DNA of 27,310 nt from a virus (lineage: Duplodnaviria > Heunggongvirae > Uroviricota > Caudoviricetes), in IMG/VR virus record IMGVR_UViG_2778261168_000001; one strand, given 5' to 3'. The translations under genes and the position numbers were made by a program. The notes beneath the pieces were generated by a model. That model was not told where the DNA came from. It was given only the letters and a program-made list of their open reading frames with translations, and made no database searches. This document shows positions 20,915 through 26,900 of this stretch, piece after piece (the stretch's first letter is position 1; each line of letters opens with the position of its first letter).

Positions 20915-22243
20915 TTACAATTCCGCGTAATTACCGTGCGCGATAATCAATCCGTAGGTGTAACAATCGAAAAGGTCATCAGCACGTTTATGTGCGTCTT
21001 TGTCTGCCAGGTGGAACCCGGCTATTTGCTTAATGAGGTGGTTTGCGGTGGTGCGTTTGAATGAAACGGTCTTGTCGTAAGCCTCCCGGACGATTTTGCA
21101 CATCCCCTGATAGTGGTAGCTGGATGCCATCACCGCCCGTTCGTCTTTGCCTTTGCTGGTTAGTGCCGATTTAATCGGCGTCATATCCCAGCCTTCGGTT
21201 TCCGCCTTCTGGTTGAGGATTGCCCCCATCGCAGCGTCTTCCATAAAAATTCCCTGGCTACCCAGACGCGGACGGCATAATTTCGCCAGGCGCTCGAGGT
21301 TGCCATAAACGCCGGGGATATATTCAGGAAGCAATGACGCTTTAATTTGCGTCACATCCCAGTCAATAATCGTCAGTTTTGGCTCGTCCGAATACGTTGA
21401 CTCATAAGCGAAATACACCACGCCAGTACCATCATTTTCGGTCCCGCCTTTCAGCGCCGTATCCATCACTGCGAAAATCATGTCGCAATGCGGCGGCATC
21501 TCAATCGGCTGACCGTCCACCAGCAGCTTATCGACATCGAGTAACGCGTCTTTCGACCAGTCCACGAACTCGGCAAGATATTCCTGCTGCCAGACACGCG
21601 GATCGGATTTCTTCTCCGTTTCCTCCAGTTCTTCTTTCGGAATGTACGGATTCGATGAAGTTGGCGCATAGTGCATGACAAATCCCAGGGATTCATCGTG
21701 GCATATCGCGTAGAAAAAATTGCTCTCGTCGATACCGTTTGGTGTGGAAAATACCCACGCACAGCCACGGTAATCGACAAGCGTCGGGCGTATAGCGCGG
21801 GGCCAGATTTCCTCGAGCATTTCCGGCGATTTAGTGAATGCGGCCTCATCAATCAGCACAGCGTGATACTTACGCCCACGTCCGGCCAGTTTGTTATTGT
21901 CCGTTACCCAAAAATCGATGCGTCCCCCATTGCGGAGGATGATTCGTTTTTCGTTCTTGGACTGACTGAGTATCAGTGGTTGCAGTGCAGCGCAAATCTC
22001 GTCCCAGATTTCCTGGTACTGACGGTATTGAGCGGTAAAGATTCCCACCCTGCCAGCTATCAACTGCCCGGTAGTGGGCACTGCAAATCGTCTGGTTGCA
22101 TAACTGGTGGCGATGTTCACCAGCATCACCGTTTTACCCCAACGGCGACCGCAACATACCGCATGGAAACGCTCTTCTATTGCCGCCGTCCATGCGGCAA
22201 TTTGCCCCTCGTGAGGCTTTGGAAGGAAAATTTCAATCGACAT
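20915..22243 (-). CDS. Terminase large subunit
   Basis: 442 aa; ATG at 22243 with GGGAGTGG RBS. N-terminal Walker A-like motif CCGRRWGKT, and an acidic VLIDEAA segment consistent with Walker B. Position before portal. Confidence 0.8.
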   Translation of the reverse strand: MSIEIFLPKPHEGQIAAWTAAIEERFHAVCCGRRWGKTVMLVNIATSYATRRFAVPTTGQLIAGRVGIFTAQYRQYQEIWDEICAALQPLILSQSKNEKRIILRNGGRIDFWVTDNNKLAGRGRKYHAVLIDEAAFTKSPEMLEEIWPRAIRPTLVDYRGCAWVFSTPNGIDESNFFYAICHDESLGFVMHYAPTSSNPYIPKEELEETEKKSDPRVWQQEYLAEFVDWSKDALLDVDKLLVDGQPIEMPPHCDMIFAVMDTALKGGTENDGTGVVYFAYESTYSDEPKLTIIDWDVTQIKASLLPEYIPGVYGNLERLAKLCRPRLGSQGIFMEDAAMGAILNQKAETEGWDMTPIKSALTSKGKDERAVMASSYHYQGMCKIVREAYDKTVSFKRTTANHLIKQIAGFHLADKDAHKRADDLFDCYTYGLIIAHGNYAEL

Positions 22244-23327
22244 TATCCACTCCCGGCATCGGCAGAGAGTTGTGAATAATTACTTGGTTATTAGCGCCAC
22301 CAGCACCTTTCTTGAGGTTTTCAATCTCGGTGCGCAGTTTTTCATTGCGCAGGCGTTTCCATTCATCATCCAGATCCCTATTTGCAGATCCTTCTTTATT
22401 TTCCGGCAACGGCTTTTTCACAGTCGTCAGATACTTCAGGAGTTCGCGTCGCGCTGCGCTTTTGTCCTCCATCAGTATTTCGACGCCGAATTTCCCGTAC
22501 TTAGCCCCGGCATAAAGCAGTCGCGCATCACCATCAAGCAGGGTGGTATCGGCAATATGGATTTCTCCCCGCCCCTCACCACAGCATTTCGGGCAGTCAT
22601 GATTGGGTATGGCGTTATCAACGAATCCGAGGCCGCCATACTCAGGCGCAGGTTTACCGTCCTTGCTGGCCTTCTCTGCGGCTTTATCGAATTCCTCAAT
22701 ATCGCGCCACTGGTAGAGATGGTTCTCGCCCCAGCAATAACGGCAGTTAACACGGCGAAATTGTGCAAGCTGATTGGGGTCGGCCTGGACAATGGCCATC
22801 AACTGACTCACCAGTAAATCCAGGTCTGCGGTATAGCGTTTCTGGTACTGATTGCGGAAGTAGCTGATGGCACGATAAACCCTGGCATTTCTAAACATGC
22901 GGCTGGCGTTGCTGTTGGCTGTCGCACCTTTCCCTTCATACCCAGCCAGTCGGTATGCCTCTGTCGGCTTTTTACCTTGGGCAACCAGCATGGCGAATTT
23001 TGCCTGCTGGTCAGAAATGCCGAATTCATCGGGACAGAATGAAATTTCCTCCGCGTCGCCCTCATTCAGGCACGCATCGGATACTGGCTTTTTTTTCTGA
23101 GATTTTCCGTTCCGCTTGTGCGCAGTCTGCGCAGATTTTTTCAGCGCACTTTTTTGCGCAGTTTTGCGCATTTCTGTCTGCGCATTTTTCGGAGGTTTTT
23201 TGATGTAACGACGGGCTGTTGCGTAATTAAGTCCCCTTGCTTCACACCATGCCACCGGAGATATACCGGAGCGGGTGTATTCAGCAATATACTCCTGCTG
23301 CAACGCCCCCCAGTCCGGTCTGCTCAT
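22233..23327 (-). CDS. Terminase small subunit candidate (N-terminal HTH, lysine-rich linker, CxxC..CxxC zinc-ribbon-like motif)
   Basis: 364 aa; ATG at 23327; overlaps the terminase large start by 11 nt. N-terminus GALQQEYIAEYTRSGISPVAWCEARGLNYATARRYIKK looks like an HTH; ..CRYCWGE...CPKCCGEG are Cys pairs. Larger than typical TerS, so the call is by position. Confidence 0.45.
   Translation of the reverse strand: MSRPDWGALQQEYIAEYTRSGISPVAWCEARGLNYATARRYIKKPPKNAQTEMRKTAQKSALKKSAQTAHKRNGKSQKKKPVSDACLNEGDAEEISFCPDEFGISDQQAKFAMLVAQGKKPTEAYRLAGYEGKGATANSNASRMFRNARVYRAISYFRNQYQKRYTADLDLLVSQLMAIVQADPNQLAQFRRVNCRYCWGENHLYQWRDIEEFDKAAEKASKDGKPAPEYGGLGFVDNAIPNHDCPKCCGEGRGEIHIADTTLLDGDARLLYAGAKYGKFGVEILMEDKSAARRELLKYLTTVKKPLPENKEGSANRDLDDEWKRLRNEKLRTEIENLKKGAGGANNQVIIHNSLPMPGVDNVD
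23119..23184. repeat. Six phased copies of (T/A)GCGCA separated by T-runs inside the terminase small-subunit candidate gene
   Basis: TGCGCA at 23119, 23128, 23155, 23165 and 23179, and AGCGCA at 23143, with intervening T4 to T6 runs. Region encodes the Lys/Ala-rich linker. Confidence 0.6.
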
Positions 23328-23330
23328 CAG

Positions 23331-23582
23331 TTAATCCTGATTTTTATCCACCCTGAGTAGTTCGCGCAGGGCAAAGGCATCCCCTTTTCTGGCAAGCTTA
23401 AACAATGCCGCTCGTAGCTCGGCTTCACCTTTCGCTCTGCCCTTACGGATGGACGCATAAAAATTTGTCATTGCTTCCCGATTTTCTTTCAGTCGGTTCA
23501 GATCAACATCCAGAACGTCAGCGATTTGTTGTGCAGTCATCCGGCACGCTGCCAGAGACTCGACTTTCGAATACGGAATCAT
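23331..23582 (-). CDS. Small HTH DNA-binding protein upstream of the packaging genes
   Basis: 83 aa; ATG at 23582 with GGGGGTGA RBS; stop is 3 nt before the next start. MTAQQIADVLDVDLNRLKEN is HTH-like. Confidence 0.4.
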   Translation of the reverse strand: MIPYSKVESLAACRMTAQQIADVLDVDLNRLKENREAMTNFYASIRKGRAKGEAELRAALFKLARKGDAFALRELLRVDKNQD

Positions 23583-24450
23583 TTGTCACCCCCATTGATA
23601 TGCAGGGTGTCTTCTTCCTGTATTTTTCGTGAATGATTTTTACTGCAGCGTTGTTCCAGGTGACCTGATGGTGAATGCGTTTATGGCTGGCGCCCATCAG
23701 GGATATTTTTACGCACGACGGCGCATACATGACGGAGTAAAAACTTTTAACGTAGGTTCCGGAATCCAGATACAGTTCGGTCATTCCGCCGCTGTTTTTC
23801 TGCGTCTGTTTCTGCCCTAACTGGACAGCACCAATCGTCATAAACAACTCACCACGGCGACCGAGATTCGTGTACGTATTCACATCCTCGTTAATGCGCC
23901 CCATGAATGAGAACGGTCGATCAACCGAACAGATAAAGCTGTTCATTGCCTTGCGTTTCACCCACGAAGCATGGCCGCCATTGTCACCAAGAAAATCCCC
24001 GCCCTGCGACATAGCGATGGAAAGAGCAGGTATTGATTCGTAGTACGCCAGCATTTCAGAAAGGATCGCATCCAGTTTCCTTATCGGAAAATAGGCCTGG
24101 TCATAGTTGCGATCCACCCGAAACTGGAACTCGTGATAATCATCATCGAGCTGAATGAAGTATTTACACCCGACCAGTTTTGCCAGGTCGAAACAGGCAT
24201 TACGGGCGTAAAAAATTGAGCGGCGGTCACAGAAATTATCGGCTTCGTCAAAACGACTGGCGATATCGGCTTTGGAAAACACCAGCACCTGTTCACCAAA
24301 TTCAGCCATGTATTGATGCCGTGTCTTATCTTCATCATCAACAACGATAAAAATTTTCCCGGTATAGCCAGCACGACGCAACGTCCGGTAAGTCAGAACT
24401 TTGTCCGGTCGCCCGTGAGTCAGAATAAAGGCGCAAAAATCATCACGCAT
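23518..24450 (-). CDS. Soluble GT-A-fold (family 2-like) nucleotide-sugar transferase-like protein
   Basis: Track start 24471; the ATG at 24450 (MRDDFCAF..) has a very strong GAGGAGGAGG RBS. N-terminus FILTHGRPDKVL...GKIFIVVDDED and a later FIQLDDDYHEF (DxD-type) motif match the GT-A N-terminal signature. No obvious transmembrane segments. Confidence 0.45.
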   Translation of the reverse strand: MRDDFCAFILTHGRPDKVLTYRTLRRAGYTGKIFIVVDDEDKTRHQYMAEFGEQVLVFSKADIASRFDEADNFCDRRSIFYARNACFDLAKLVGCKYFIQLDDDYHEFQFRVDRNYDQAYFPIRKLDAILSEMLAYYESIPALSIAMSQGGDFLGDNGGHASWVKRKAMNSFICSVDRPFSFMGRINEDVNTYTNLGRRGELFMTIGAVQLGQKQTQKNSGGMTELYLDSGTYVKSFYSVMYAPSCVKISLMGASHKRIHHQVTWNNAAVKIIHEKYRKKTPCISMGVTNDSVFESRVSGSVPDDCTTNR

Positions 24451-25234
24451 ATTCCTCCTCCTCACCACCATGCATGATCTCCACCATGCGCTGCGTCATC
24501 CGGACAAATCCATTTTCAATAGCCTGCTGATAATCAATGATCACCAGCGCCGACTCCTCGAAAAAACACTGAATTTCAGCGGGGGCGTGAGCGTAATAGT
24601 CCGCAATTCTGCTGAAATTAAACACCGTGTGACGTTCTGCCGCACACAAGAGGAACTTCTCAATATCAGGCTCAAGGGACGCCGAACGTATCCGGCTGAT
24701 CAACTCCTGAGTTTTCGTATCGTCGTACAGTTCACTGATATCTGGTTTATCGCCCGACGGCTCATAAACAGGCGTATCAATTTTCGTCGTGTACGGCTCC
24801 TCCTCATTTCCTGTACCGGGCAAAACATCCGTCAACAGTTCATCAATTTCTGTCGGGATGAAGCCTGTCAGGGAGACATCAAAATCAGCATTGATTAGGT
24901 CCGACAGCTCCATCCGCAACAGATCTTCATCCCAGCCAGCATTCATCGGCAGGCGATTATCTGCCAGGCGGTACGCCTTTTTCTGCTCATCCGTCAGGCC
25001 AGACAGAACAATGACCGGAACAGAATCCATTTTGAGCATTTCAGCCGCCATAACACGACCGTGACCCGCAATAATTTCGCCCTTTTCGTCAATCAGCACC
25101 GGATTAGTCCAGCCGAATTGCTTAATACTTTCTACCAGTTGTGCCACCTGCTCAGTACTGTGCGTCCTGGCGTTGTGCGCATACGGTGACAATTCTTGTA
25201 ATGGGCGATAGACTATCTTTAATTTCTCGCTCAT
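24443..25234 (-). CDS. ParB-like nuclease domain protein
   Basis: 263 aa; ATG at 25234. N-terminus YRPLQELSPYAHNARTHSTEQVAQLVESIKQFGWTNPVLIDEKGEIIAGHGR contains the ParB/sulfiredoxin-fold GxxR box (AGHGR). Overlaps the next gene start, so the two are co-operonic. Confidence 0.65.
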   Translation of the reverse strand: MSEKLKIVYRPLQELSPYAHNARTHSTEQVAQLVESIKQFGWTNPVLIDEKGEIIAGHGRVMAAEMLKMDSVPVIVLSGLTDEQKKAYRLADNRLPMNAGWDEDLLRMELSDLINADFDVSLTGFIPTEIDELLTDVLPGTGNEEEPYTTKIDTPVYEPSGDKPDISELYDDTKTQELISRIRSASLEPDIEKFLLCAAERHTVFNFSRIADYYAHAPAEIQCFFEESALVIIDYQQAIENGFVRMTQRMVEIMHGGEEEEYA

Positions 25235-25371: not shown

Positions 25372-26829
25372 TTAGGAGCGCCAAAAAAAACCTGAAAACA
25401 ATATAATAACAGGATAAATTTCAAGGCGACCAAGAATCATAGCTATGCACATTAAACATTTTGCAATGTCATTAAGCACTCCGAATGACGATGCAGTAGC
25501 CCCAAAACCTAATCCCATATTATTAATACATGCAGCCACTGTTGCAAATGATGTAAGAAAATCATATCCCATACCATTTAACACCAGTATAAAAAACACC
25601 GTGAAGAGAGTATAAAGAAAAAAGAAACTCCATACAGACCTCATTACACGATCTGTAACTATCTTCCCTCCTACATTTACACTCAACAACGCTCTGGGAT
25701 GAGAAAGCTGATTTATCTCGTGTTTGCTTTGTTTGAAAAGTATAAGAAATCGAAGTGACTTAATTCCACCACAAGTTGAACCTATACATCCCCCAAAGAA
25801 ACTTGACAACAGCAAAAACACTATCGTGTGCGTGGGCCAACTTGCATAATCCTGCGTAGCTAAACCATTATCAGTGAGCATGGAGCTGGCAAGAAAAAAC
25901 GAATGAATAAAACTTCCATGCAAGTCATACATACCTATATGCCAGACCTGGAAAGAGGTAACAATGATCACCCCTAAGGCTATTAACAGAAAGAAACGAA
26001 GTTCAATATCTCTGATTAAAGGTTTTATCGTTTTCCTGCTAATAACAATATACCAAAGAGTGAAGTTGAAAGCCGATAGCAGGGAAAAAGAACCAGCCAC
26101 CAGCTCAACCAAATAGTTATTAAAATATCCGATACTCTCGCTATGAGTTGAGAAACCACCAAGCGAAACTGTGGAAATCCCGTGACAAATAGCATCAAAC
26201 AAAGGCATTCCTGCAAGTCTATAACAGACAATACAAGCAATACCTAATAAAGAATAAGTTATCCACAGTGTCCGTGACGTATCGGCCAGGCGGGGAGTGA
26301 GTTTGTCATCCTTAAATGGCCCCGGCATTTCTGACTGATAAAGCTTTGCACCACCAATACCCAATAATGGCAATACAGCAACCGCCAGAACAATAACTCC
26401 TAAACCACCTATAAAATTTAACTGTGACCGATAGTACAAATATGCCCGAGGTAATGAACTAACATCATCAATTACAGTTGCTCCTGTTGTTGTTATTCCA
26501 GAAACCCCTTCAAACAGAGCATCAATGAACGTTAAATTAAGTTCTGAGTCAATCCATAAAGGGAATGCACTAATAACAGAAAACAAAATCCAAAACATTA
26601 CAATTATAATAAACCCATCACGGGTACGTAATTGAATGCCAGATTTCTTAGTTGTATACCACGCTCCGCCACCAATGCAAAAAAATATAACGAAAGTTAT
26701 AAAGAAAACGAACAGGCTTTTTTCTTTATAAAACAATGCTACAACCATTGGTGGCAACATTGAAAGACTATAGAGCCAAACCAGGAACCCACACATATGA
26801 GTAACAACTCTTACATGAGATGTATTCAT
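25372..26829 (-). CDS. trkG: TrkG/TrkH-family potassium uptake transporter (prophage cargo)
   Basis: 485 aa from ATG at 26829 (MNTSHVRVV..); the track's 491-aa version starts at TTG 26847, which has an AAGGTGG SD. Multiple membrane helices with the reiterated glycine-containing pore motifs of TrkH/KtrB (FCIGGGAWY, TTGATV, NFIGGLGV, STVSLGGFS, GGCIGSTCGG, INNMGLGFGAT). Gene is visibly AT-rich. Rz/Rz1-trkG is the Rac prophage arrangement as I recall it. Confidence 0.85.
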   Translation of the reverse strand: MNTSHVRVVTHMCGFLVWLYSLSMLPPMVVALFYKEKSLFVFFITFVIFFCIGGGAWYTTKKSGIQLRTRDGFIIIVMFWILFSVISAFPLWIDSELNLTFIDALFEGVSGITTTGATVIDDVSSLPRAYLYYRSQLNFIGGLGVIVLAVAVLPLLGIGGAKLYQSEMPGPFKDDKLTPRLADTSRTLWITYSLLGIACIVCYRLAGMPLFDAICHGISTVSLGGFSTHSESIGYFNNYLVELVAGSFSLLSAFNFTLWYIVISRKTIKPLIRDIELRFFLLIALGVIIVTSFQVWHIGMYDLHGSFIHSFFLASSMLTDNGLATQDYASWPTHTIVFLLLSSFFGGCIGSTCGGIKSLRFLILFKQSKHEINQLSHPRALLSVNVGGKIVTDRVMRSVWSFFFLYTLFTVFFILVLNGMGYDFLTSFATVAACINNMGLGFGATASSFGVLNDIAKCLMCIAMILGRLEIYPVIILFSGFFWRS

Positions 26830-26846
26830 ATCTAAATATTCTTTCA

Positions 26847-26900
26847 ATTATAACCACCTTGCTGCAATATTATGATTATACTGTATAAAATTTAACTCCT
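26847..26900 (-). promoter_or_regulatory. AT-rich upstream region of trkG with two perfect TATAAT hexamers (candidate promoter)
   Basis: Minus-strand TATAAT at 26880..26875 and 26852..26847; no convincing -35 found. Confidence 0.25.

Follow-up and report, generated by a model that had tools for sequence, protein, structure and literature searches.

The small terminase gene (terS) of the Caudoviricetes virus record IMGVR_UViG_2778261168_000001, the whole stretch of which (27,310 nucleotides) is referred to here as the window, contains an array of short palindromic hexamers, mostly TGCGCA, in the DNA encoding the start of a disordered linker, directly 3' of an extra helix-turn-helix (HTH)-like domain at the N-terminus of the protein (N-domain). 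Comparison with relatives supports the view that the type of hexamer switches with a single residue of the predicted recognition helix of this domain, independently of the remaining TerS protein, and we are confident from the same comparison that the hexamers are kept by selection acting on the DNA itself and not on the encoded peptide. The array therefore probably comprises the DNA binding sites of the TerS N-domain, which would make it the recognition part of the pac site of this prophage. A reading of the repeats as a pac or TerS recognition site had been put forward in a first-pass annotation of the window and gains support here, because the motif and the helix switch together and because the arrangement matches that of the phage P1 pac site within pacA. 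The features on which the argument rests are the following, with gene positions in nucleotides (nt) of terS and residues in amino acids (aa):

22233..23327, minus strand: terS, small terminase subunit, 364 aa (Pfam Terminase_2, 1e-8; PHROG 51, 1e-71)
20915..22243, minus strand: terL, large terminase subunit, whose start overlaps the end of terS; presumed nuclease/motor partner
23199..23327, minus strand: N-terminal three-helix (HTH-like) domain, aa 1-43, from AlphaFold (AF2) models
23034..23198, minus strand: Lys/Ala/Gln-rich linker, aa 44-98, predicted to be disordered; holds the array
22845..23033, minus strand: canonical small-terminase DNA-binding domain (SF6/SPP1 G1P-like), aa 99-161 (Terminase_2 profile; match to 4zc3)
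23119..23184, minus strand: hexamer array, five TGCGCA and one TGCGCT on the gene strand; gene nt 144-209 of 1095, codons N48-H70
23179..23184: copy 1, TGCGCA; gene nt 144-149, frame 2 (N-A-Q); unchanged across close relatives
23165..23170: copy 2, TGCGCA; gene nt 158-163, frame 1 (M-R-K), unlike the frame of the others; TGTGCA or TGCGTA in some relatives
23155..23160: copy 3, TGCGCA; gene nt 168-173, frame 2 (T-A-Q)
23143..23148: copy 4, degenerate, AGCGCA on the plus strand and TGCGCT on the gene strand; gene nt 180-185 (S-A-L); TGCGCA (S-A-Q) in most relatives
23128..23133: copy 5, TGCGCA; gene nt 195-200, frame 2 (S-A-Q)
23119..23124: copy 6, TGCGCA; gene nt 204-209, frame 2 (T-A-H); many relatives read TGCACA

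On the plus strand, TGCGCA begins at 23119, 23128, 23155, 23165 and 23179 and AGCGCA at 23143, which gives start-to-start distances of 9, 15, 12, 10 and 14 bp and an extent of 66 bp (23119-23184; the plus strand of this segment reads gTGCGCAgtcTGCGCAgattttttcAGCGCActtttttTGCGCAgttttGCGCA...). Runs of T are found at 23136-41 (T6), 23150-55 (T6), 23162-65 (T4) and 23185-89 (T5). The spacings and the extent agree exactly with the first-pass annotation, which had described six hexamers within 66 bp at spacings of 9 to 15 bp with T4 to T6 separators. Its placement of the repeats in a small-terminase candidate gene was also right, the gene being confirmed as terS, and needs one correction: the gene lies on the minus strand, so that on the coding strand the T-tracts are A-runs, mostly Lys codons. 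The array is non-random, because TGCGCA occurs 13 times in the window against 10.5 expected and none of 200,000 random placements of 13 sites brought five into 66 bp, the largest cluster being four sites, reached twice. The density of T runs at the array falls into the top 0.1% of 110-bp windows. Their period is about 12 bp (top 0.09%) and a period of 10-10.5 bp is not significant, so that the description of the tracts as phased, with intrinsic bending (a trait of SPP1/SF6-type pac sites), was not borne out by tract periodicity. TGCGCA is its own reverse complement, and the array is situated wholly inside the coding region, with no TGCGCA hexamer in the 300 bp upstream of the terS ATG.

Selection on the DNA was assessed in a comparison set of 80 viral contigs and 77 loci taken from one genome per species, with species from the Enterobacterales, Vibrionaceae, Aeromonas and Gallibacterium. 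Motif copies pile up at gene nt 120-240 (102 loci), and relatives hold 3-7 copies of the hexamer. The 61 diverged loci with the same helix contain 281 copies of TGCGCA distributed over all three reading frames, with 208 in frame 2 (encoding xAQ), 56 in frame 1 ([VLM]R[TSKN]) and 17 in frame 0 (CA), i.e., 26% outside frame 2. Synonymous positions are constrained as well: Ala-Gln is written T-GCG-CAR in 193/218 cases (89%) within the array zone versus 54/136 (40%) in the rest of terS (Fisher p = 2e-22). The copies have A-rich flanks with the consensus A(C/G)TGCGCA(A/G)A, and their spacings cluster at 7, 9, 12 and 14-16 bp. In Klebsiella phage terS genes, whose DNA identity with the window is only about 70% in this region, TGCGCA occurs six times between nt 138 and 201, the frames being 2, 2, 2, 1, 2 and 0, and a relative from Gallibacterium carries AAACTGCGAAA six times, which encodes acidic N-C-E peptides. 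It is this combination of three frames, unrelated peptides, constrained synonymous positions and conservation across genera that argues for selection at the DNA level; since the hexamer falls in any frame, the peptide follows from the position of the hexamer.

The second line of evidence is the covariation between the hexamer and the N-domain helix. Loci with the helix motif A-R-R (n = 140) have on average 4.86 TGCGCA and 0.04 TGCGAA/TTCGCA within the array (185 bp), and on average 1.56 TGCGCA over the remaining 2.7 kb of each locus. Loci with A-K-R (n = 12) have on average 0.08 TGCGCA and 5.17 TGCGAA/TTCGCA, their arrays being written as TGCGAA(T)/ATTCGCA. The helix A-R-R-Y-I-K is thus paired with TGCGCA and A-K-R-Y-I-K with TGCGAA(T), a rule that is valid both within the Terminase_2 body (with its CxYCWG motif) and within a coiled-coil body that matches no Pfam family. 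In one relative (P0073), the N-domain and the array are joined to an Sf6_terminase body. The K alleles are found at at least five places in the N-domain tree, which is short and weak. Other helices are accompanied by other arrays. Stx-converting phages with the helix A-R-T-R-I-K (L006, L007, L009) contain (C/T)GATCAT four times at nt ~138-185 with an exact period of 12 bp, encoding IDHEIDHKTDHEIDH and placing a Dam GATC site in every copy. A locus with the allele WGTAKKHITIK (L169) has AAAAATCGCGAA(T) three times at nt 168-225, with the palindrome TCGCGA in two frames (KIAN and KSRK). The phage vB_Apl-pPE4 (L004) shares the body of the window protein and has an unrelated, HTH_50-like N-domain; its terS shows GTTTCCAC twice and GTGGAAA(C) two to three times at nt ~145-200, a single motif in both orientations (GTTTCCAC/GTGGAAAC).

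The anatomy of the protein is consistent with a separate reader domain. In the AlphaFold model of aa 1-162, the N-domain consists of helices at 6-20, 24-31 and 35-~42, the predicted local distance difference test score (pLDDT) falls below 50 for aa 59-93 of the linker, and aa 99-161 are helical and well predicted. The latter region resembles 4zc3, the SF6 small-terminase DNA-binding domain, with a target-normalised TM-score of 0.79 and a root-mean-square deviation of 2.2 (Foldseek). Modelled by itself, the N-domain reaches a pLDDT of 84 and places R39 and R40 in the third helix; the predicted recognition helix is Y35-K43 (YATARRYIK), with R39 as the covarying residue. The domain ends at nt 129. 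Its Foldseek matches are individually insignificant, and nearly all of them are HTH DNA-binding proteins or domains (IstA, Aca1, DeoR, Rex, sigma region 4). No Pfam model was found for the N-domain, and a profile search of 1.84 billion proteins returned 274 cluster representatives in which its position is invariably residues 1-49.

The closest known system is the pac site of phage P1, which covers 161 bp within pacA and comprises seven TGATCA/G hexamers in two clusters (HEX4 and HEX3) and an IHF site, with host Dam and IHF acting on it; when the hexamers were recoded synonymously, the titre fell 9-fold (PMC10028697). PacA and PacB recognise this site, the IHF site separates its two clusters, and Dam methylation governs its cleavage. 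In the P1 record, the hexamers start at pacA nt 194, 201, 213 and 228 (frames 1, 2, 2, 2) and at 324, 336 and 347 (frames 2, 2, 1), and thus span nt 194-233 and 324-352 with the annotated cuts between them at nt 276-285. Both systems have an array of a palindromic 6-bp element in the 5' part of the small-terminase gene, preceded in each case by the coding sequence for an N-terminal domain whose signature is LN-x-x-TARRY[IL][KR], and neither keeps its hexamers to a single reading frame. The Stx-phage members share GATCA and IDH-type peptides with P1 and closely resemble its first hexamer cluster. Many Klebsiella-type relatives have a second cluster of three TGCGCA 150-200 nt downstream, comparable to the 4 + 3 arrangement in P1; it is found at nt 360-403 in L001, at nt ~348-391 in L098, L115, L117, L124 and L136, and at nt ~297-349 in L095 and L130, with spacings of 12 and 26-34 nt, inside the region coding for the canonical terminase DNA-binding domain. 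The N-terminus of P1 PacA (..NTARRYL..) aligns through aa 3-41 with the full length of the N-domain (BLASTP E = 0.008; hhalign probability 76%, E = 2e-5), and the alignment of the Stx-phage TerS with PacA reaches E = 8e-4. When a hidden Markov model of 74 N-domains was compared with the 528 open reading frames (ORFs) of P1, PacA came out on top, but with E = 0.043. The remainder of the window TerS differs from PacA and belongs to Terminase_2 (SPP1/SF6-like).

Several observations weigh against the array being the recognition part of a P1-type pac site. The similarity between the N-domain and PacA is marginal. The window has a single cluster in place of 4 + 3 hexamers flanking a cut: at the position of the second cluster only TGCCCA is present, and the nearest further TGCGCA is 770 nt away. 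Its hexamer is TGCGCA and not TGATCA/G and contains no GATC, hence no Dam site, so that the array is presumably without methylation control. The IHF consensus WATCAANNNNTTR had no match within terS in a consensus scan, another difference from P1. Residue 39 is not the sole determinant of specificity, because P1 has an A-R-R-Y helix and yet TGATCA. Repeats near terS need not be the recognised element, given that in SPP1/SF6, where they are poorly conserved, the DNA-binding domain has little sequence preference (PMC4737164). An A-R-R-type helix occurs without a TGCGCA array in L135, L154 and obvious pseudogenes. Single copies are at times mutated in close E. coli relatives (TGTGCA, TGCGCG, TGCACA); the mutated and deleted copies indicate either a loose constraint on each copy or that many such prophages are decaying. 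Finally, a literature search for binding, cleavage or virion-end data on the window prophage or its close relatives found none.

Some of these loci deserve a closer description. In L154 (Oceanisphaera litoralis), GGGCAA is repeated five times in place of the array and encodes G-K/G-N repeats, and in L135 (Hafnia psychrotolerans) the gene is truncated at the contig end. Four E. coli-type loci (L072, L073, L074 and L076) have in-frame deletions of 12 or 28 nt that drop one or two hexamers, which suggests changes in copy number via slippage or recombination between the repeats; by this comparison the array tolerates the loss of individual sites. According to its annotation, the terS of phage Rac-SA53 (L003) arose by a deletion that fused gene O to terS; the N-domain is gone and three hexamers (two TGCGCA and one TGCGCT) are retained. 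We read it as a decayed copy and not as a counter-example.

A mechanism that accommodates these data can be proposed. According to the models and profiles, TerS carries its extra three-helix domain (aa 1-43) tethered by a basic linker of about 55 residues, predicted to be disordered, to an SF6-like domain, and the DNA encoding this linker holds 5-6 TGCGCA palindromes that, as frames, synonymous sites and cross-genus conservation show, are under selection as DNA. Several N-domains of one TerS ring may then bind several hexamers together, with individually weak contacts summing to a high specificity for the phage concatemer. By analogy with P1, P22 and SPP1, TerL would be positioned for a nearby cut, and headful packaging would proceed in the direction of terS to terL transcription, i.e., towards lower window coordinates. 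On this reading, the window would hold a P1-type pac site that uses another hexamer, lacks methylation control, shows a single cluster in this copy and belongs to a cassette that switches terminase bodies. Since the reader domain and its sites lie within one short stretch of DNA, they would move together between terminase bodies as a specificity cassette. About as much speaks for as against the broader proposal of a portable packaging-specificity cassette, consisting of a PacA-like N-terminal HTH and its own hexamer array, that is widespread in temperate phages, is attached to at least three unrelated TerS bodies and comes in discrete classes (TGCGCA, TGCGAA(T), TCGCGA and a GATCA type), with the Arg/Lys change paired with C-to-A at hexamer position 5; the hosts concerned are Enterobacterales, Vibrionaceae, Aeromonas and Pasteurellaceae.

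Of the alternatives, autoregulation survives best, although we regard it as unlikely. Here the N-domain would bind the array to control the transcription or translation of terS and terL, and the true pac site would be elsewhere. The covariation shows that the domain and the sites belong together and does not show what the binding is for, the sites lie near the start of terS, which opens the late packaging operon, and the second, canonical DNA-binding domain could take over pac recognition. However, the equivalent hexamers of P1 are a functional pac site (PMC10028697), five to seven sites exceed what a simple operator usually needs, and the cassette was found attached to small terminases only. 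A regulatory role would also be compatible with a pac role. It is quite improbable that a protein other than TerS binds the hexamers, such as a host factor, the product of an 83-aa ORF or a GCGC DNA methyltransferase, in which case the covariation would reflect mere linkage. This idea draws on the 83-aa ORF upstream, which has a PHROG match to 'terminase small subunit' and ends 3 nt before terS, and on the action of host Dam and IHF on P1 pac (PMC10028697). However, relatives from Klebsiella, Yersinia and Stx phages have the array without this ORF, no methyltransferase gene adjoins terS in the window, and the array type tracks the N-domain allele across bodies and across hosts from Enterobacterales to Vibrionaceae and Pasteurellaceae, which makes a host factor hard to invoke.

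We give very little credence to a function at the level of RNA or transcription, with mRNA hairpins tuning terS translation or antisense hairpins followed by T runs acting as terminators. The RNA of the array does fold more stably than expected in the window (z = -5.1) and in Klebsiella (z = -4.0), and four intrinsic-terminator-like hairpins, made of hexamer pairs and T runs, are found at 23116-23184 on the plus strand, antisense to terS. However, the stems are merely 6 bp long and the arrays of sister classes are unstructured (Gallibacterium, z = +0.6; Yersinia, -0.8; Stx phage, -0.7; P1, -1.6), for which reason folding and antisense terminators were set aside as a by-product of the GC-rich palindrome and not a conserved property. 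Hardly anything remains of a purely coding origin, raised in the first-pass annotation and rejected here, in which the x-A-Q-K peptide repeat of a low-complexity Lys/Ala/Gln linker would yield the hexamer incidentally: five of the six window copies do share a frame, with xA[QLH] as the encoded peptide, the linker is predicted to be disordered and the 12-bp period is divisible by three, but 26% of the 281 copies encode [VLM]R[TSKN] or CA in other frames, synonymous positions are fixed, other classes encode acidic or unrelated peptides or sit on both strands, and the motif switches with the upstream helix allele.

The reading as N-domain binding sites within a pac site can also be compared with other packaging systems. 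The window TerS body and those of SPP1 and SF6 (pacL-pacC-pacR, G1P) share a Pfam family, and aa 99-161 of the former match the SF6 DNA-binding fold; in both systems terS begins with repeats that have AT runs, and the likely mode of binding is a ring of many weakly binding HTH domains (PMC4737164). The SF6/SPP1 domain itself binds pac DNA without sequence specificity (PMC4737164), and in the window TerS the extra N-domain is the candidate for a specific reader. The differences are this additional domain, a sharply defined hexamer that covaries with it, and the location of the site, which in SPP1/SF6 extends from the promoter region into the beginning of terS, whereas the window array is entirely internal to the coding sequence. 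As in P22/Sf6, the pac site would lie inside the small-terminase gene, so that site and specificity travel together (PMC11260489 for P22). The sites of P22/Sf6 are, however, single and asymmetric (~17-22 bp), in contrast to the 5-7 reiterated hexamers of the window type. Outside packaging, the iterons of the lambda origin in gene O offer a parallel, where an N-terminal DNA-binding domain binds repeats in the DNA encoding the inter-domain linker of its own gene; lambda O differs in that it initiates replication instead of serving as a terminase, and its repeats measure 19 bp.

For the E. coli LF82 prophage Gally, the pac peak was mapped inside its own terS (PMC9928086). Gally was rejected as a relative, as its TerS is an unrelated 140-aa protein, and supports the general principle only. 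The Morganella phage Mecenats66 and papers on lateral transduction offered no relevant terminase. The ends of public phage records and virome contigs were discarded as a proxy for the packaging start, terS being internal or the record starts looking arbitrary. Literature searches on TGCGCA and terminase, on the Stx/933W pac site and on TerS-HTH repeats found no description of the array; their coverage was incomplete and does not prove novelty.

Further features of the window concern the surroundings of the array. Two extra TGCGCA copies are present at the 3' end of terS, of which relatives retain one, and the pair may be a second subsite or a product of chance:

22331..22336 and 22346..22351: two extra TGCGCA, 15 bp apart; gene nt 977 and 992, frame 1 (L-R-N-E-K-L-R-T)

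The terS gene is the first of an uninterrupted minus-strand morphogenesis operon, and the operon from terS to the tail fibre (23327 down to about 480) appears unbroken. NCBIfam and PDB sequence searches for the TerL type were uninformative. The 83-aa ORF (23331-23582, minus strand), whose end lies 3 nt ahead of the terS start codon, has a match in PHROG 309 'terminase small subunit' over profile positions 145-218 of 319 (E = 2.5e-22) and none in Pfam. Its product may be a further protein for packaging or DNA binding; the Klebsiella, Yersinia and Stx relatives lack this ORF ahead of terS. Immediately before the packaging genes, a TAGT-family (TET-associated) glycosyltransferase gene (23518-24471, minus strand; Pfam 4e-36; labelled 'GREB1-related protein' by PGAP in relatives) is overlapped by a gene for a ParB_N-domain protein (24443-25234, minus strand). 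The two could form a DNA-modification pair; no TET/JBP gene was found in the window. A TrkG-like potassium transporter gene (25372-26847, minus strand) adjoins the late region of the prophage, as in the Rac prophage of E. coli K-12. With the 83-aa ORF, the glycosyltransferase, the ParB_N protein and the TrkG-like transporter, the neighbourhood is that of a Rac-type prophage.

Experimentally, pac sites are known for a handful of phages only; the site of ES18 is still unknown (PMC11260489), and most prophage pac sites are unpredictable. A recognisable signature is offered by an HTH at the N-terminus with its own array of hexamers behind it; of 5,426 complete E. coli genomes, about 900 have it, and it also occurs in Stx-converting phages and many other genera. 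If the array is indeed the recognition part of pac, it marks where headful packaging starts and hence where the lateral transduction of neighbouring host genes begins. It would also supply a small, testable protein-DNA pair (R39/K39 versus TGCGCA/TGCGAA) and compact packaging signals for the design of phagemids or transducing particles, as has been done for P1. Should the cassette proposal hold true, pac specificity and the starting points of lateral transduction would become readable from sequence, and reprogrammable.

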